Positions 15,258-54,035 of a stretch of 64,000 nt of DNA are shown piece by piece. The notes under the pieces were generated by a model. The model saw nothing but the letters and a program-made list of their open reading frames with translations. It was not told the origin of the DNA and did not search any database. Each line of letters begins with the position of its first letter. Within the stretch, counting starts at the first letter, position 1. Origin of the DNA: a virus (taxonomy: Duplodnaviria > Caudoviricetes); the IMG/VR virus record IMGVR_UViG_3300023213_000432, positions 263,424 to 327,423 of that record. One strand, given 5' to 3'. Both the position numbers and the translations under genes were made by a program.

Positions 15258-15290
15258 TATAATGACCCACGACTGAAGTCGTAGGCTTCC
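15258..15290 (+). mobile_element. Orphan IS200/IS605-family end hairpin
   Basis: AATGACCCACGACTGAAGTCGTAGGCTT matches the IsrB element left end at 51043 at 23 of 28 positions. No transposon ORF is attached. Confidence 0.75.
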
Positions 15291-15300
15291 TTGCTAAAGA

Positions 15301-15380
15301 TCGTGAAACCATTATCAAATAAAAGGGCTATAATCTAGTATTTATTTTGTGGGAAATTACCAGAAACGTCCAAAAACAGA
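15301..15380 (+). pseudogene. 3' scar of a Vsr-like homing endonuclease
   Basis: Reads RETIIK*KGYNLVFILWE versus REALIKQRGYNLISIWE in gene 6061-6972, with an in-frame TAA and an indel. Confidence 0.7.
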
Positions 15381-46287: not shown

Positions 46288-47232
46288 GTGTTTGATAGTC
46301 AAACAATCCACCCATTTATAAAATTCATCTAGTGTTAGATTATTTTTAGCGGAATTACAATATTTGCAACTTGGCACCACGTTGTTGTAATAGTGTGGAA
46401 GAGCATTGTCGATACGATCTAAACCGTTGTAGATGAAGGTGCCGGTAGCATAAGCAGAAGATCGCTTATCATATCGATTTCGTTTGTTGAATGGCTCGCC
46501 TCCACAATAAAAGCACGGCATTTGGGTAAGTTGAAAAAATTGTTCTAAGATCAAATTGCCGGGACGATCATTTTGATAAATATCAAAGGCGCTCTTAATG
46601 GAACCTATAAGAGCATAATTGTTTTTATCATATAGTAATGATACATCAATTTTCATGGACACGTCTCGATACTCTTGTGGTATTAATCTTTGATGATGTA
46701 TCAAAGCAAATATGTATTGCTGAAATTTCTCTAATGAGCGATCCAATTTGGCTCTATTACAAATCAAACAAGCGGGTACAACGTTGTCTATTATGTGTCC
46801 TTTGGAAGAGTCGAGACGATCGATGGTGTTATAAGTGAATTCTTGAGTATCTTTCCGTTTTGCAAAACATTTAAGATTTGGTGCAGCGCCGCAATAAAAG
46901 CAATTTTCTTGGCACATCTTTAAAAAAAATTCGAATGGTAGTTCAGAATATCTATTTTTTCGTTTCCAAACAAGACGAGCAGCCGCCTCTAATGGTGGAT
47001 ATTTGGGCTCGCTGAACGGAACCAGATGCGGAGCTTCTAGTTTGAGACATCCGCAAGATTGAGTTTTGCCAGTGGTAAGCGAATATCCTCGTATAATCAC
47101 ACACTTACCACATTTACACAGACATTTCCAATAAGCGGCAGTATCGTTTTTTCGAGTACCCGGATTTGGTGCTCTTTCAATAACGGTTAATCGCCCAAAA
47201 GATTGACCAATGAGATCATTTAATGGCTTCAT
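46270..47232 (-). CDS. His-Me finger (HNH-like) endonuclease-family protein, two domains
   Basis: GQSFGRLTVI..WKCLCKCG..SCGC N-domain; two CxYCG..YNx[IL]DRxD..H..NVVPxCxxCNxAK domains. Confidence 0.8.
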   Translation of the reverse strand: MKPLNDLIGQSFGRLTVIERAPNPGTRKNDTAAYWKCLCKCGKCVIIRGYSLTTGKTQSCGCLKLEAPHLVPFSEPKYPPLEAAARLVWKRKNRYSELPFEFFLKMCQENCFYCGAAPNLKCFAKRKDTQEFTYNTIDRLDSSKGHIIDNVVPACLICNRAKLDRSLEKFQQYIFALIHHQRLIPQEYRDVSMKIDVSLLYDKNNYALIGSIKSAFDIYQNDRPGNLILEQFFQLTQMPCFYCGGEPFNKRNRYDKRSSAYATGTFIYNGLDRIDNALPHYYNNVVPSCKYCNSAKNNLTLDEFYKWVDCLTIKHSRFQP

Positions 47233-48194
47233 TGGTTCGAATTTAAATGGTTAAATACTTTAATAATCCATCCTTTGAATTCTTCTATATTCATAATGTT
47301 TTTAGCCACATTGCATATTTTGCAGCATGGCACAATGTTATCCTCTGCATGATTTCTGGTAGAATTAAGGCGATCTAATCCATTATAGATAAAAGTTGCG
47401 TTTTGTGCCCAATCAAATGAGACACGTTTATCTTTACGTCCTTGTTTGGTTAGATATCTATTAAGAGAATTACTTGGCAAACGCCCACAATAATAGCATT
47501 CGTTTTGAGATAATTTTAGAAAAGTTTCAAAAGAACATCCGTCAGCATATTCTTTTCTCCATACAGTTTTAGCAGATGATAATATGGGCGCTTTTATTTG
47601 TCCAAGAGGATTTGACTGTATAATTTTGATTTGGGTGTTGAGAATAGAGTGGTTATGAACTTGGATAATCCATTCTCGAAATGTTTTAAGTGGCATGTCA
47701 AGCTTTGCTTTGTTGCAAACAAAACAGCAGGGAACAATATTGTTTAGGGTATGGCGCTGCAAAGGATCAATACGGTCTAATCCATTATAGATGAAATTAG
47801 CCTGATTAGCCCATTCTGGAACAATACCGTGCTTGATTTTTTTCTTTTTAGTAAGATAACGATTGTATGAATTAGATGGTGATGACCCACAATAATAGCA
47901 AGATTCCTGCGACAATTGAAGAAAATCGGTAAAAGAAATATCATTGTCAGCGTAAAAGCGCCAAATTGCTTTTGCGGACACTAATGTTGGATTATGATAT
48001 TGTCTTCTGGTTTTGCTATAAACGCACCCACAACTTATGGTTTTACCGGATTTAAAACTGTCCGTTCTAATTTGAATAGTTGTCCCACATTCGCACTGAC
48101 ACCAATAATAAGAATGCTTGTTTTTCGTGTGACTATGTTTAATAACCGTCAATTTACCGAATTTTTGACCATTAATATTAATAGTTTTAGGCAT
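47229..48194 (-). CDS. His-Me finger (HNH-like) endonuclease-family protein, two domains
   Basis: Same architecture as 46270; ATGA-coupled paralog. Confidence 0.8.
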   Translation of the reverse strand: MPKTININGQKFGKLTVIKHSHTKNKHSYYWCQCECGTTIQIRTDSFKSGKTISCGCVYSKTRRQYHNPTLVSAKAIWRFYADNDISFTDFLQLSQESCYYCGSSPSNSYNRYLTKKKKIKHGIVPEWANQANFIYNGLDRIDPLQRHTLNNIVPCCFVCNKAKLDMPLKTFREWIIQVHNHSILNTQIKIIQSNPLGQIKAPILSSAKTVWRKEYADGCSFETFLKLSQNECYYCGRLPSNSLNRYLTKQGRKDKRVSFDWAQNATFIYNGLDRLNSTRNHAEDNIVPCCKICNVAKNIMNIEEFKGWIIKVFNHLNSNQ

Positions 48195-48296: not shown

Positions 48297-49037
48297 ATGG
48301 CTCTTAAGATTGCACAGCCAGGATTAAATCCTCTTGGACAATTCGACTGCCTCGACGCTGACGTTTTCCGCGTTAAGGGTGGCGAAGTAATGCTTTTTGA
48401 TAACGTTCTCTCTCCCAACCCTCCCGGCACTGACTTAGCTGCTTCGGATGCGTTTGACGGCTATGTTAACCCCAGCTCGGTTCAAAAGAGAACCGTGGTT
48501 CGCTTGTATCCATCAACTCTCGATGGTTATGGCCCTGTGATGCTTTCTGACGATGGTATTAAAGGATATGGTACTCTCTTCGGCACAGTTGTTGGCGCAG
48601 TTGCTGGTCAGACCGCTTATGGTCCTAACCAGACTCCTGCGGCTACAGATTTGCTTGGACCTCATACTGCTAAAGGCTCTGGCAAGATTACTTGCTGGGA
48701 TAAACCCGGTGTTTATGCAGTTTCGTTGGATGCATGCGACCCCGCAGCTTCTACCGGTTTGCAACCCACCAACACCTTCATTGGTGCAGGCAACAAATTG
48801 TTCGTTATGGCAGATGGCACTGGCAGATTGACTCCATCCAACGGCTTTAACTTGTTCCCCAAGTCCTATGTTGGTCGTTTCATTGAATTCGAGACTCTCC
48901 AGTCTTTGGTGACTACCCCCAATCGTTTGGTGGCAGCTCTCAATAGCCCCAGCGGTAGCGTTTCTTCTGTTGGTCTCGGACAGTTCAACTTTGCTCTGTT
49001 CTACTTCAACGCAGGTCAGCCTGGAACCTTCCCATGA
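48297..49037 (+). CDS. Putative head decoration/cement protein
   Basis: 246 aa, Gly-rich, highly biased codons, own leader and terminator; last structural gene before the major capsid gene. Confidence 0.65.
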   Translation: MALKIAQPGLNPLGQFDCLDADVFRVKGGEVMLFDNVLSPNPPGTDLAASDAFDGYVNPSSVQKRTVVRLYPSTLDGYGPVMLSDDGIKGYGTLFGTVVGAVAGQTAYGPNQTPAATDLLGPHTAKGSGKITCWDKPGVYAVSLDACDPAASTGLQPTNTFIGAGNKLFVMADGTGRLTPSNGFNLFPKSYVGRFIEFETLQSLVTTPNRLVAALNSPSGSVSSVGLGQFNFALFYFNAGQPGTFP

Positions 49038-49104: not shown

Positions 49105-49728
49105 TTAAAGGATATTTTTCCAAAAAACCAATTTGCGTTTGATAAGAGTTTTAATCAAGCGCCCCGCCCAATCCGTAAATTGCTCCATTGTCATATTGTG
49201 TTTAGCAATATTGCAAGCTATACAACAGGGCACCACATTGTCCTCTGAATGATCTCGCGAAGGATCAACACGATCCAGCCCATTGTATTTAAAGAACGCA
49301 TTTTTAGCCCATTCCACATTTACATCTGTATTTTTTACTCTACCATCTTTGGCGATGTAAGCATTATAAGTATTTGAGGCACCGGCTCCACAATAGTAAC
49401 ACGGTTCTTGCGATAAACGAAGAAAAACATCAAAAGAACATCCGTCGTCATACGACATTTCCCATATTCTTTTAGCTGAAGCTATTTTGGGATCCTTAAA
49501 TTTTCTTCCTCTCGTGTTGCCTAAGTTACTTTCCATCAACCTTTCCTTATGCCAACATCCACAACTTTGCGTGTGTTCGCTTCGTAAATGATTTGCTTCT
49601 ACTATAGTTTTTTTACCACAATCACACTTGCATAGCCAATACGCCCTGCCACTTGGTTTCTTGGTATGGTCATATTGAATCACCGTCAATTTTCCAAATC
49701 TTTGTCCTGTTAAATCAATTCTTTTCAT
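49105..49728 (-). CDS. His-Me finger (HNH-like) endonuclease-family protein, single domain
   Basis: MKRIDLTGQRFGKLTVI..SCGC; CYYCG..YNGLDRVD..CCIACNIAK. Confidence 0.8.
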   Translation of the reverse strand: MKRIDLTGQRFGKLTVIQYDHTKKPSGRAYWLCKCDCGKKTIVEANHLRSEHTQSCGCWHKERLMESNLGNTRGRKFKDPKIASAKRIWEMSYDDGCSFDVFLRLSQEPCYYCGAGASNTYNAYIAKDGRVKNTDVNVEWAKNAFFKYNGLDRVDPSRDHSEDNVVPCCIACNIAKHNMTMEQFTDWAGRLIKTLIKRKLVFWKNIL

Positions 49729-50771
49729 AATAAATAGTTCAAAGAGACCCACGATTTTAGTCGTGGGAGGAATTGAACTCTCCTATTCTGTGCATATAAA
49801 ACGTCAATATCTCTTTTCTTGACGAATTGTTTAACTCTTTTTCCAGTAATAATACTATGGAGCGAAATTTTTCCTTTGCTACTTCCTCCAAGGTAATAAA
49901 GCTTACCTTTATGTTTCACGACAGATCCTCTTGATATTCCCATAGAGATAGTGGTGCCATATTGTTTTCTAACATTATTCTTGATTGAATTCTGGACATG
50001 AAGTTGTCTCCGATGAAACTGCAGAAACTCTATTTTCCAAATACCAAGATACGAAATAATATCAACTTCCAATGCTATCTCTGCAAGAACATGACTATCC
50101 ACGTTATGAGCATTCCAAGAATAATTAAGCTTGGAATATGATTTTTGAAAGCCTCGTTGATCTCGTTTTTCTTGAGTTTGATGTCCTTGGGTTTTGAGAA
50201 GCTGAACTCCAAGGTTTTCTATTTCTTGATAGAACCAAACCTTTCCCACTTCTAAAGGAGAGAAAGAAAGATTCCACTTTGCCTGCCCTTTCTTAGTGGC
50301 AGCGGCAATATCTTCTACATTAACGATTGTGATAGGAATAATTTTCAGAAGAAATTTAACCATCCGTAGTTTAGCATTCCACCTAGCTTTGGTGGAAGGA
50401 GGAATTCGATTTTTCCTCAAAGTAGCTCTGTTTTCTCGACAAGAACGATAGGGGGTCTTTCGATGTCTTCTAGCTCTTCGAAGGTTTCTACGAGTTTCTA
50501 CATGATCTTTAACCCAGTCTGGAGTATTAGTCGTGATATTGAGAACTACTGTTTTCTTAGTAGCAATAGTATATCCTTCTCTTTTACTTCCTGGATCAAT
50601 GCCAAGAGCAATGGGTTGTGTCTTTCGGTTAAAAGGTTCTCTGGTTAGACGGACGCAGAAAATTCCCTTCTGCCAATATGAAATAGCCTTTCCTTTCTCC
50701 ATAAGTTTCCGTGCTCTTTTCTCAGAGCAGGGCATTAATGGTTGTTTATTATTATCGATGACGGGAACCAA
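49725..50771 (-). CDS. isrB: IsrB RNA-guided nickase (IscB family lacking HNH)
   Basis: PLMP N-domain, RuvC-I GIDPGSK, Arg-rich bridge helix, RuvC-II VNVED, RuvC-III HNVD; 348 aa with no HNH insert. Confidence 0.85.
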   Translation of the reverse strand: MVPVIDNNKQPLMPCSEKRARKLMEKGKAISYWQKGIFCVRLTREPFNRKTQPIALGIDPGSKREGYTIATKKTVVLNITTNTPDWVKDHVETRRNLRRARRHRKTPYRSCRENRATLRKNRIPPSTKARWNAKLRMVKFLLKIIPITIVNVEDIAAATKKGQAKWNLSFSPLEVGKVWFYQEIENLGVQLLKTQGHQTQEKRDQRGFQKSYSKLNYSWNAHNVDSHVLAEIALEVDIISYLGIWKIEFLQFHRRQLHVQNSIKNNVRKQYGTTISMGISRGSVVKHKGKLYYLGGSSKGKISLHSIITGKRVKQFVKKRDIDVLYAQNRRVQFLPRLKSWVSLNYLL

Positions 50772-51043
50772 TTTCTATTTATTTCCTCAAAAAAAATGCA
50801 CTTACGTGCCTTGTTCAACTCGCTTCGACATAAGCAAAACACAGTGGCTACAGACTAGCGAAACATCCAGTAGCATGACCTTTTCCAGTCTCGTCATTAG
50901 CGATCCTGATCTGCCTATTTGAAATATCGTTTGGTAAATTACCTTTCTTCTTTCTTTGTCTAGTACAATATTTTAGTCTTGATCAAAAGAATCTGACTAG
51001 GATCCTTCGCACAAGCCCATGACTTTAGTCATGGGTTATTGAC
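49741..51043 (-). mobile_element. Non-autonomous IS200/IS605-family OMEGA element (omegaRNA plus IsrB)
   Basis: Left-end hairpin GTCAATAACCCATGACTAAAGTCATGGG at 51043; right-end hairpin CCCACGACTAAAATCGTGGG at 49748-49767; no tnpA. The right boundary is approximate. Confidence 0.85.
50772..51043 (-). ncRNA. omegaRNA (HEARO-like) scaffold of IsrB
   Basis: About 270-nt noncoding leader beginning at the left-end hairpin; contains GCTACTGGATGTTTCGCTAGTCTGTAGC and ATGTCGAAGCGA elements resembling omegaRNA cores. Confidence 0.75.
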
Positions 51044-51592
51044 TTTTTGTTTAGTTTGATTGCTCAATCTATTTTTGCTTGGGTTATTGTTTTGATTGCG
51101 TTCCTTCAACAATTTGCAATGCCCACAATCAGGAGCATGCTTTTTACCAACATTACGTCGATGTCCTTTCATTTTTTCACTTACCTTTTTCTTGCTTTCT
51201 TCGGATCTTGGTGGTTGTTTCCACCCACTAGCATATAAATCTTTTTTCTGTTGTGATAATAATTGTTTAGTTTGTTCTGAATGCTGATGTCCAGAGGCAC
51301 CATCGCCACCATCGGTGATATTATACAACTGAACTCCAATGGATCTTAAATAAGCAATCCACCAACATTCTGCTTCATTAAGATTTTCTTCCGTGTCGTG
51401 ATGTTCCAGTATTGAATAGTCGAAATTGCTAATACCATACTTTTGAAGTGCTAAATCTATTGGGTATCGACGATGAGATTTATGATCACCTAATCGCCTG
51501 TTTTCATTAATGGTTTTGCCAACATAGGCTTTGCCGTTGATTCGGTTGATAAAGATGTAGATAACCGGGTTGAATGACTTACTTTTTACCAC
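51029..51592 (-). CDS. GIY-YIG homing endonuclease with NUMOD3 motifs
   Basis: VIYIFINRINGKAYVGKT, R..H, E, YN..DGG, HSEQTKQLLS; its stop codon lies inside the IS left end. Confidence 0.88.
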   Translation of the reverse strand: MVKSKSFNPVIYIFINRINGKAYVGKTINENRRLGDHKSHRRYPIDLALQKYGISNFDYSILEHHDTEENLNEAECWWIAYLRSIGVQLYNITDGGDGASGHQHSEQTKQLLSQQKKDLYASGWKQPPRSEESKKKVSEKMKGHRRNVGKKHAPDCGHCKLLKERNQNNNPSKNRLSNQTKQKVNNP

Positions 51593-51741: not shown

Positions 51742-52755
51742 ATGAATATGTTTGATTCACGAGGACAGATTAACGCTTCCTCAAATGCTGATCTTATGCA
51801 GCAACTTGTTAAATATGCGCAGATCCTTTCGGATAACGTTCCGGCTAATCAGGGTCTCGCAGGGCAGCCAGCTCTTTCTGATGAACGTCGGGACGATCTA
51901 GTTGCACGCGCTATTCAGACGCAAGATGGCAAAATTGCTCTTGCTCAAGCGATGGCAAATCCCATCCGAAGAAACTTAGATTATCACGGAATTGCTCGTA
52001 GAGCACTCGTGGTCGATCCTCTTCCTCAGGGCGCTCTTCCCACGTATGACCGTGATATTGATGTCGTGGCAGTGGTTATTGCCTCTAACGGCACTGGTCC
52101 TGAATCCCGCGTTTTCGGTGACCGTGTTACTGTTCCCGAGTTTGAGATTTATGCTAACCCAACCGTTCGTATCGCTGAAGTTAAGCGTCGCCGATTCAAC
52201 GTGATTGACCGTGCAGTCCAAAAGGCTCGCCAAGAAATCATGGCTCAAGAAGATGCCAACGTGTTTGCCGCTCTCGATGCAGCTGCTTCCGTTGAAAACA
52301 CCGTAATGGATATTGCGGATGCTGGTCTTCTCAAGCGTGATTTGGTGGAAATTAAGCAGCAAGTTGATCGTTGGGATCTCGTGACGACTAAATTCTTTAT
52401 GAACATCAACGAATTCACTGACATCCTCAAGTGGGGATCTGGTGGTGGTCAAGGCGTTGGTGGTGGTGACTTGGATCCAGTGACCATGCGCGAAGTTCTT
52501 CAGACTGGGCTTTATGCTCATATTTGGGGCGCAGACATTATGGTCAGTAAAATCGTTCCTCCGGGCACCGTCTATGGCGTGGCCGACCCTGAATTCGTCG
52601 GCGTAATGCCAGTGCGACAAGACATCGAAGTACTTCCTGCGGATGAGCCAAAACAATTGAAACTTGGCTGGGTTGTGAGCGAAATCATTGGTCTCGCGAT
52701 TGTCAATCCACGTGGCGCTGCAAAGGGTAATAAATCGGTTATCATCGGAGCCTGA
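51742..52755 (+). CDS. Major capsid protein (HK97 fold inferred)
   Basis: 337 aa, strongly biased codons, strong RBS and terminator; ALAQAMANPIRRNLDY..PEFEIYANP..; position at the end of the head module. Confidence 0.82.
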   Translation: MNMFDSRGQINASSNADLMQQLVKYAQILSDNVPANQGLAGQPALSDERRDDLVARAIQTQDGKIALAQAMANPIRRNLDYHGIARRALVVDPLPQGALPTYDRDIDVVAVVIASNGTGPESRVFGDRVTVPEFEIYANPTVRIAEVKRRRFNVIDRAVQKARQEIMAQEDANVFAALDAAASVENTVMDIADAGLLKRDLVEIKQQVDRWDLVTTKFFMNINEFTDILKWGSGGGQGVGGGDLDPVTMREVLQTGLYAHIWGADIMVSKIVPPGTVYGVADPEFVGVMPVRQDIEVLPADEPKQLKLGWVVSEIIGLAIVNPRGAAKGNKSVIIGA

Positions 52756-52790: not shown

Positions 52791-52829
52791 AAAACGACCT
52801 CTAACGCAAGTTGGAGGTCGTTTTCTTTT
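52791..52829 (+). terminator. Intrinsic terminator after the major capsid gene (probably bidirectional)
   Basis: AAAACGACCTCTAAC-GCAA-GTTGGAGGTCGTTTT followed by CTTTT. Confidence 0.85.
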
Positions 52830-53403
52830 GTCCATGTACTGTTTGATATAGTTGCTGGATCCATGCTTCAAATTCGGCAACTGTGCGTTCCCGTTTGGCA
52901 AAGTTGCACCACTTACAGCAAGGCACAACATTCTCCAACGTATGTAATTTAGTATTGTCTATCCGATCCAATCCGTTATAAATAAAAGCGCCATTCTCTT
53001 TGGCAAAAGCGGATGAGTTCTTATATGATAGATGTATGTTTTGAACATTGTTAGGTTTAGAGCCACAATAATGGCATAGTAATTGAGAAATACGAAAGAA
53101 ATCTTCAAACGACAATCCATCATTATAGTTTTTTCTCCATATGCTGCGCGCTGTTGCTTCGCTTGGATGATATTTGATGCGAACACTATACATTTTGACA
53201 GCTCGTTGGCTTCGTTTTTCGTTGTTCAAGCATCCGCATGATTTAGTGTCGCCACTCTTCAACCCGTCTGATTTGATTATTTTTTCTGTCCCACAATCAC
53301 ATAGACATAGCCATGCCATTCGGTTTCGTTTGCCAATGGGCTCCGCTTTACCTATTACTGTTAATCTTCCAAACTTCTGCCCCAATAAATTTTCTTTTTT
53401 CAT
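52801..53403 (-). CDS. His-Me finger (HNH-like) endonuclease-family protein, single domain
   Basis: GQKFGRLTVI..SCGC; CHYCG..YNGLDRIDN..H..NVVPCCKWCNFAK. Confidence 0.8.
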   Translation of the reverse strand: MKKENLLGQKFGRLTVIGKAEPIGKRNRMAWLCLCDCGTEKIIKSDGLKSGDTKSCGCLNNEKRSQRAVKMYSVRIKYHPSEATARSIWRKNYNDGLSFEDFFRISQLLCHYCGSKPNNVQNIHLSYKNSSAFAKENGAFIYNGLDRIDNTKLHTLENVVPCCKWCNFAKRERTVAEFEAWIQQLYQTVHGQKKTTSNLR

Positions 53404-54035
53404 TTAACCAATTCTCTCGCCATTCTCACAAACTTTTCATCCAGCTCAAATCCAATAAATTGTCTCCCATTATCCTTAGCAATCTTGGCGGTTTTTCCTG
53501 ATCCCAAGAATGGATCCAACACTACGTCATTTTCTTTGGTAAATGTTAGAATAATTCGTTTCACCAATTCAGAGGGAAAACTGTCTTTAGCTGGATAGTC
53601 ATTAATTTTATCACTTTCCAGAAGCCAGACATCAGGATAAAATTCGGATAAAGTATTTTTGATAGCTGGCTTTTTTCCTTTGCAAAAAAAGAGCATATGA
53701 CAAAAGGTTAGAATATAAAGATTAGATTTAAGTGTCTTAGCCCAAATTTTGTAGTTGAAGAGATTAAGCTTTGGCACAGAATTAATGATTTCTGAATGTT
53801 TCGTAAAGACAGAACCTTTAATTTTGGTGTCGGTAGTAATAGAAACCATAACACCTCCTTCAGCTAATTTATCAGAACAATCAGAATAAATCGTATGTAT
53901 AAAGCGCTTATATTCTTCCAAAGAATAGTTGGTTTCGTTAACATCTGGAGGGCTCATCACAATCAGTTGAGGAGCTACATTCAACTCTTGAATAAGATCG
54001 AGAGCGTTACCGTGATAAATAGTATTAGGCTTCAT
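53400..54035 (-). CDS. N4/N6 DNA methyltransferase (beta-class), atypical SPPD motif
   Basis: IYHGNAL..LIVMSPPD; VVLDPFLGSGKTA; GFELD. Confidence 0.8.
   Translation of the reverse strand: MKPNTIYHGNALDLIQELNVAPQLIVMSPPDVNETNYSLEEYKRFIHTIYSDCSDKLAEGGVMVSITTDTKIKGSVFTKHSEIINSVPKLNLFNYKIWAKTLKSNLYILTFCHMLFFCKGKKPAIKNTLSEFYPDVWLLESDKINDYPAKDSFPSELVKRIILTFTKENDVVLDPFLGSGKTAKIAKDNGRQFIGFELDEKFVRMARELVK

Follow-up and report, generated by a model that had tools for sequence, protein, structure and literature searches.

The question raised by this locus is what kind of element stands between two homing-endonuclease genes next to a phage capsid gene, and how it came to stand there. The DNA analysed, called the window below, comprises the final 64 kb of a linear IMG/VR virus record of 327 kb (IMGVR_UViG_3300023213_000432); the record is ~76% complete, which implies a huge phage of ~430 kb. 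Positions are those of the window unless they are given as genome positions. On the minus strand, a GIY-YIG gene, a 272-nt non-coding leader, a 348-aa open reading frame (ORF) and an HNH-type endonuclease gene follow one another. A preliminary description had recognised here a complete IsrB-omegaRNA insertion sequence (IS) element, and its anatomy, its protein and both of its ends have all been found in place. We hold with good confidence that 51043-49729 on the minus strand is a non-autonomous IS200/IS605 transposon of the ISC1/ISGst type, which carries IsrB together with its omegaRNA and was inserted directly 5' of ATGA, where the HNH gene has its start codon. The preliminary description had not mentioned that the element is multi-copy, that ATGA is the predicted target-adjacent motif (TAM), that the GIY-YIG gene is C-terminally short, or that the phage has a tnpA gene.

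The element, its protein and its guide RNA

Both ends of the window element could be fixed because five full copies and their derivatives share sharp boundaries. The full copies (that in the window and those at genome positions 65133, 110843, 114403 and 167253) are 82–89% identical; their similarity begins with GTCAAT(A/T)ACC and ceases after ATGA, and the break falls exactly at 51043/51044. The transposon proper, from GTCAAT to the base preceding ATGA, is 1315 bp long (49729..51043, minus strand), and the terminal sequence, TTTTCATGA in most copies, reads TTATTATGA in the window copy. The preliminary description had looked to an empty-site allele to fix these boundaries; none was found, and the boundaries come from the multi-copy alignment. 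The flanks of at least 11 elements are unrelated, with neither target-site duplications nor inverted terminal repeats. At both ends there are subterminal imperfect hairpins, which had been noticed previously at the same places: the omegaRNA-proximal one, CCCATGAC-TAAA-GTCATGGG (51035-51016, minus strand), is at the same time stem-loop SL1 of the omegaRNA and contains the TGA that ends the GIY-YIG ORF, and the TAM-proximal one, CCCACGAC-TAAA-ATCGTGGG (49767-49748, minus strand), lies within the isrB coding sequence.

The isrB gene (49725..50771, minus strand) encodes 348 aa from a TTG start, and its stop is the TGA of the flanking ATGA. Searching Pfam with this ORF gave RRXRR (PF14239) alone, with 1.8e-40 over residues 2-161, and no HNH family; the PLMP motif occupies residues 11-14. 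The top match in the Protein Data Bank (PDB) was DtIsrB (8DMB; 124.6 bits, 5e-35, residues 2-319 of 348), and the IscBs in PDB matched with 7e-9 or weaker and in the N-terminal third only. The catalytic residues of RuvC I, II and III (D59, E153, H222 and D225) are invariant in an alignment of 27 sequences and align with those of DtIsrB, and RuvC-II and RuvC-III are only ~70 residues apart, too close together to accommodate an HNH insert; the earlier view that RuvC is intact and HNH absent was therefore correct. R312 is nearly invariant in the same alignment, and R312/Q315 align with R323/Q326, by which DtIsrB recognises G and A in its NTGA/TTGA TAM (Hirano et al. 2022, PMC9581776). At E <= 1e-10 the protein has 2260 homologues, several of them on contigs of 220-412 kb. 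All five isrB genes of the record are open, with pairwise dN/dS of 0.16–0.23 and dS of 0.32–0.61, and dN/dS is ~0.2 in each comparison involving the window copy. By these substitution rates, every full copy has remained under purifying selection for the IsrB protein.

The leader had been described as omegaRNA-like, and this has been borne out by a weak but full-length match to the Rfam family HEARO (RF02033) and by strong compensatory covariation in both domains. The match (51043-50741, 28.1 bits, E 0.0033) begins at the first base of the element. The HEARO search that had been suggested as a check thus gave an alignment over the full length, but not a score at the family's gathering level of 83 bits; paralogues score 22.8–24.8 bits and the relative L105 36.4 bits. 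We gathered 12 further phage IsrB leaders and made separate covariance models for the 5' domain (model R2) and the 3' domain (model R3), against which the window omegaRNA scores 112 and 129 bits, respectively. The scaffold of ~250 nt, supported by the HEARO match, these models and the covariation, is located at 50792..51043 on the minus strand. Its 5' domain (51043-50954) consists of helix P1 (GUCAAUA/UAUUG-AC) around SL1 and a second stem-loop, SL2, and its 3' domain (50923-50792) of a long helix, then the conserved GGAUGUUUCGCUAGUC hairpin, and finally a terminal hairpin with T8 after it.

Because each alignment used for covariation had been fitted to its model, the figures lean toward structure: for the 5' domain, with 25 distinct sequences, pairing is seen in 91.5% of cells, compared with 73% when shuffled and 33–47% with a slid partner, with compensatory changes at 22 of 29 pairs; the SL1 helix (helix 2 of the 5' model) is 94.7% paired, with compensatory changes at 7 of 9 pairs; and for the 3' domain 86.6% of cells are paired against 64% when shuffled, with compensatory changes at 26 of 29 pairs. 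The slid controls and the many pair types argue for a genuine omegaRNA fold. A 3-bp P1 taken from RNAalifold in the first model of the 5' domain was dropped, and the Rfam-like P1 of 7 bp is the one that covaries. When RNAalifold was applied to a plain MAFFT alignment, only two helices were recovered, because the variable regions misalign.

The predicted guide, GCAATCAAACTAAACAAAAA (51063-51044, minus strand), is the 20 nt of flanking DNA directly 5' of the omegaRNA scaffold and corresponds to the 3' end of the GIY-YIG remnant, just as had been read from the sequence at first. Each guide of the copies in this genome matches its own flank only, and a search of the genome for second targets found chance near-matches only, with at least 2 mismatches.

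The ATGA motif and the mobility of the element

ATGA (49725..49728, minus strand) abuts the TAM-proximal end in 11 of 11 elements with the end type of the window copy, with the copy m73 reading TTTTATGA, and it also follows the elements of the closest phage relatives (L107-L110). A related family, designated 'u', has CGTGA at this end, and the opposite, omegaRNA-proximal flank has no conserved base. ATGA is thus predicted to be both the IsrB TAM and the insertion motif, in agreement with an NTGA TAM and with the conservation of the R/Q readers. In ISGst elements, TTCAT abuts the left end and is a motif shared by TnpA and the nuclease (Meers et al. 2023, 10.1101/2023.03.14.532601); ATGA is the reverse complement of the TCAT core within this TTCAT. 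Because of this TAM geometry, we infer that the naming of the ends in the preliminary description has to be reversed: if ends are named by reference to TnpA, the right end is the omegaRNA-proximal one, and the end previously called right becomes the left.

The four bases also belong to two genes. The isrB frame runs through the end hairpin, and its stop codon, TGA (49727-49725), shares bases with ATG (49728-49726), the start of the following HNH gene, HNH215, an ATGA overlap that had been described correctly. A single four-base sequence would therefore be TAM, transposase target, stop codon of the nuclease and start codon of the neighbour, and we regard it as a clean natural example of such multiple use. 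In 9 of the 11 elements, an ORF of 74-854 codons begins with the terminal ATG, against 20% for all ATGA on the strand (binomial P = 2e-5). At the other end, 8 of the 11 are entered by an upstream ORF, at least 60 codons long, that stops inside the element. Each of the three reading frames meets a stop in the first 19 nt of the omegaRNA-proximal end, with TAA at positions 6-8, TGA at 13-15 and TAA at 17-19; these stops cannot be claimed as an adaptation, because the motifs are not conserved in distant relatives and an AT-rich end closes frames soon anyway. In this one genome, the placement at start codons may reflect either targeting or selective survival of those insertions that do least harm.

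A broader view, which we consider less likely than not, is that this IsrB clade is adapted to dense phage genomes by its use of ATGA. Landing or survival at ATGA start codons, read-through of isrB that couples translation of the next gene, and closure of three frames at the other end would make insertions almost non-polar, and together with omegaRNA-only derivatives and homing-endonuclease genes the elements might form an RNA-guided homing network between co-infecting relatives.

The window element has no transposase gene. The only tnpA found in the record (genome 45421-45816, minus strand; Y1_Tnp PF01797, 141 bits) is part of an apparently complete IS605 element (genome 44381-45816, minus strand; L103:1381-2816), in which tnpA (131 aa) overlaps tnpB (364 aa, with a Cas12f1-like TNB domain). 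The right-end hairpin of this tnpA-tnpB element, CACGAC-TTTAG-GTCGTG then ...TGAC, is one base pair apart from that of the IsrB elements, CATGAC-TTTAG-GTCATG then ...TTGAC, and from this likeness it seems plausible that the TnpA of the tnpA-tnpB element mobilises the IsrB elements. Further tnpB-like stretches are present on the minus strand at genome positions 100398-100979, 172114-172491 and 224941-225543.

In the mechanism that we propose, a Y1 transposase acting in trans would excise and insert the element as single-stranded DNA via its two subterminal hairpins, and the insertion would adjoin the TCAT motif, i.e., ATGA on the isrB strand. Transcription from the co-oriented upstream gene would give an omegaRNA with 20 nt of flanking DNA as its 5' guide, and the IsrB-omegaRNA complex would recognise this 20-mer only when ATGA follows it, that is, in an element-free or freshly excised allele. 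IsrB would nick such an allele on its non-target strand, and recombinational repair from an occupied genome would then recopy the element (restorative homing) or transfer it into a co-infecting relative. Transposition by this TnpA is a supposition, and omegaRNA expression, nicking and homing are expectations drawn from the published behaviour of the family: IsrB has an NTGA TAM and nicks the non-target strand (PMC9581776), and nicking of element-free alleles is its expected activity (Hirano 2022, PMC9581776; Meers 2023 preprint, 10.1101/2023.03.14.532601).

The record also holds several kinds of derivatives. Three omegaRNA-only minis of ~450 bp have lost isrB and kept both ends (genome 73379-73835, 75938-76390 and 99327-99791; L098:13379-13835, L098:15938-16390 and L099:7327-7791); they retain the complete two-domain omegaRNA, and could be stand-alone guide-RNA genes using IsrB supplied in trans. 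An extra omegaRNA 5' domain (genome 73013-73061; L098:13013-13102), which scores 73 bits against model R2, is situated 366 bp upstream of the mini m73 and looks like a tandem or nested insertion. A second family of ~350 bp (genome 94032-94391, 120029-120382, 127328-127691 and 34413 on the minus strand) has the GTCAATTACC... end in common with the IsrB elements, and its TAM-proximal end, ...GCTAAGAGATCGTGA, is related but different. Solo ends of this family are found at genome 226035-226085 and in the window at 15258-15326 on the plus strand. One end of this type occurs ~500 bp upstream of the tnpB-like gene at genome 224941-225543, and the family may be composed of TnpB-type derivatives that share ends with the IsrB elements. 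Two 50-nt single-hairpin relics (genome 53781-53831 and 54750-54799) consist of the opening bases of one end (GTCAATAA...) fused to the closing bases of the other (...TTTTCATGA), and the ATG of both still opens a long ORF, of 190 and 252 codons.

The insertion site and other explanations

The GIY-YIG, isrB and HNH genes on the minus strand interrupt a plus-strand structural module, between the gene for P246, a 246-aa protein (48297-49037, plus strand), and that for the major head protein, MCP (51742-52755, plus strand; PHROG 2522, 3e-82). The preliminary description had concluded that neither neighbour is disrupted, and this stands for HNH215 but not for the GIY-YIG gene. HNH215 (49105..49728, minus strand; 207 aa from the ATG of ATGA; PHROG HNH endonuclease / endonuclease VII) is intact; another phage (L051) has a full-length homologue in this gap, 60% identical, which begins at the equivalent residues. 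The GIY-YIG gene (51029..51592, minus strand; Pfam GIY-YIG 2.2e-10, PHROG homing endonuclease) takes its stop from inside the end hairpin, as had been pointed out: its protein ends at 187 aa, the last 4 codons and the stop being element-derived, with the TGA (51031-51029) situated 13-15 nt inside the element. The syntenic homologue of 247 aa (L041:5511-6254, minus strand) is 50% identical to residue 174 and has ~65 further residues with a weak helix-turn-helix signal. GIY-YIG homing enzymes are expected to have a DNA-binding tail at the C-terminus, and the lost tail was found nowhere downstream.

The other full copies and the minis have different neighbours, some following an rIIB-like gene and others preceding VapE-like, UvrD-type helicase and small unknown genes. 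The rIIB-like gene (L100:2101-2850) ends inside copy c110 without the acidic tail of ~62 residues that its homologues in three related huge phages (L136, L137 and L138) possess, and this insertion may also have shortened its upstream gene. No empty allele was found for the rIIB site, where the homologues of relatives, 50-57% identical and with a different C-terminus, are too divergent, nor for the VapE-like site, whose gene has no match in the relatives.

At 80 related MCP loci, the P246-MCP gap is usually ~150 bp long, and a minority have a gene of the HNH or GIY-YIG type in it. In this phage clade the gap serves selfish nuclease genes generally as a landing pad, and the position of the window element between two endonuclease genes is incidental. 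The structural module contains three minus-strand HNH paralogues and the GIY-YIG gene, each between plus-strand virion genes (47229-48194, 49105-49728, 52801-53403 and 51029-51592); one of the three paralogues is a tandem double module of 321 aa. After the homing-endonuclease genes there is a DNA methyltransferase gene (53400-54035, minus strand). Counting isrB, three kinds of selfish nuclease gene are found side by side next to the capsid gene. A blastn search of INPHARED gave no related phage record for the 7-kb region.

Among related genomes, IsrB is found in none of four complete relatives, whose MCPs are 84-90% identical, and a fifth relative, G005 (92% complete), has one. The IsrB load of the record is a lineage-specific expansion, and this distribution argues for recent acquisition. 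In G005 (a 394-kb phage, the contig of L107), the MCP gene matches in two pieces, 254950-255750 and 256910-257149 on the minus strand, which are ~1.16 kb apart and suggest an intron or an inserted endonuclease gene inside.

Several observations weigh against reading the window element as a mobile transposon that landed at this site. No empty site for the window copy was found at the 80 loci, in the four complete relatives or in the contig collections: neither IsrB nor a GIY-YIG/HNH junction occurs in the gap at any of the 80 MCP loci, the exact 26-nt left flank has no match in viral and metagenome contigs, and the HNH215 protein has none in metagenome contigs. The GIY-YIG protein has no close relative among viral contigs either, with at most 42% identity over the catalytic domain and one 28-residue fragment at 62%. 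When the element is removed in silico, the GIY-YIG frame joins the ATG of HNH215 without a stop, and because the reconstructed empty site fuses the two frames, the element may originally have been inserted in a context other than the present flank; the simplest history would be that, before IsrB arrived, the GIY-YIG gene was already a remnant abutting the HNH start. The leader falls short of the HEARO gathering score, the covariation figures have the leaning mentioned above, and a promoter scan upstream of the guide gave no signal above chance. The sole tnpA found, in a record ~76% complete, belongs to an element whose hairpins are similar but non-identical, and the large dS between copies points to old or independently acquired copies and not to a recent burst.

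Some of these observations would also suit an immobile passenger, a copy which no longer transposes or homes and persists as harmless or dragged along by the neighbouring homing endonucleases. The lack of a tnpA in cis and of a known empty site, the large dS and the odd in-frame reconstruction are all in its favour, as is the fact that the window omegaRNA does not have the 52-nt two-hairpin module of the genome's seven other omegaRNAs (those of four full copies and three minis). We nevertheless rejected this absence as a defect, because outgroup omegaRNAs are also without the module: 11 of 12 from phages have no insert at all at that position, L121 has a different one there, and absence is the common state. 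An isrB ORF that is open with all catalytic and TAM residues, the dN/dS values of the window copy, the retention of all omegaRNA helices and the presence of a tnpA in the genome likewise speak against the passenger explanation, which we consider unlikely.

Still less probable, in our estimation, is the explanation favoured in the preliminary description, in which the element has specialised as the parasite of a homing-endonuclease cassette, being targeted to the junction of the GIY-YIG and HNH genes and spreading with them or at their expense. The element does lie exactly between such genes, the gap holds HNH or GIY-YIG genes in some relatives, and cleavage by a neighbouring endonuclease could co-convert the IsrB element into relatives, as may be supposed from intronless homing (review PMC13565253). 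However, the four other full copies and the minis adjoin no homing-endonuclease gene, there is no enrichment beside such genes within the genome, and the 80 MCP loci without IsrB include those with such genes in the gap; moreover, the guide is merely whatever flanks the end, and the GIY-YIG gene has been truncated and not preserved. The feature common to the insertion sites is ATGA, usually as a start codon, and not a homing-endonuclease gene.

A domesticated function, in which the phage would employ IsrB-omegaRNA and the minis to attack or regulate competing phages or the DNA of the host and not for the inheritance of the element itself, can be largely dismissed: the many copies under purifying selection, the omegaRNA-only genes scattered through the genome and the competitive edge that homing endonucleases give to phages (PMC13565253) would agree with it, but within the genome no guide has a match beyond its own flank, the transposon ends are intact, the catalytic residues have been retained, in contrast to domesticated TldR-type relatives, and nothing separates its predictions from selfish retention.

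Comparison with known systems

The window element, read as a transposon inserted at ATGA, is an intact, well-preserved and ordinary member of the known ISC1 / IsrB-omegaRNA IS200/IS605 family. The proposal that it is a candidate new compact editor is not supported, since its IsrB is of standard size with TAM readers of the known NTGA type, and an earlier study has characterised an IsrB of viral-metagenome origin, K2IsrB (PMC9581776); for genome engineering, it offers one more compact nickase with a predicted NTGA TAM and no new tool class. Its interest is modest and lies in the fourfold use of ATGA, the omegaRNA-only derivatives and the trio of selfish nuclease genes beside the capsid gene. 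The record, with five intact copies and guide-RNA-only derivatives against none in four complete relatives, shows that OMEGA (IsrB) transposons can thrive in very large phage genomes, and co-infection by phages would allow 'non-restorative' RNA-guided homing to be measured directly.

The closest characterised systems are DtIsrB-omegaRNA of Desulfovirgula thermocuniculi (8DMB) and K2IsrB (PMC9581776), which are of the same family and size, with the PLMP/RRXRR N-terminus, a split RuvC with D/E/H-D and no HNH. They share with the window element a TI domain whose TAM-reading positions are occupied by R and Q, an NTGA/NTG TAM, and an omegaRNA of ~250-300 nt directly upstream with a 5' guide. Compared with DtIsrB, the window protein is divergent, aligning over residues 2-319 of 348, and its activity is predicted; the element resides in a huge phage and not in a bacterium, and its isrB continues past the transposon end to a stop supplied by the TAM.

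The ISGst elements of Geobacillus stearothermophilus carry IscB- or TnpB-family nucleases and have TTCAT (ATGAA on the nuclease strand) at one end; the IscB elements are co-oriented with the upstream gene, and there are protein-less derivatives (PATEs) and one TnpA for several families (10.1101/2023.03.14.532601). The phage has a similar swarm of non-autonomous elements with similar ends, IscB-/TnpB-family nucleases, protein-less derivatives and one tnpA elsewhere, with a corresponding TAM at one end and co-orientation with the upstream gene. It differs in that the nuclease is the HNH-less nickase IsrB and not IscB, and in that the replicon is a phage genome of ~430 kb.

The omegaRNA resembles HEARO (RF02033) in its start (GUCAA...), helix order, conserved GGAUG...CUAGUC hairpin and alignment over the full length. 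With 28 bits against 83 it is a non-member by the Rfam rule, and the phage clade forms a divergent branch with extra variable stem-loops.

In its setting, the element resembles the free-standing homing-endonuclease genes of large phages (T4 seg/mob type; PMC13565253), in that it occupies an intergenic hotspot between conserved structural genes beside GIY-YIG/HNH genes and would be expected to spread through cleavage of unoccupied alleles and recombinational repair in co-infection. Unlike those genes, it would use a guide RNA and a 4-nt TAM and not a DNA-binding domain, and would make a nick instead of a double-strand break, and it has true transposon ends with which it can reach new sites.

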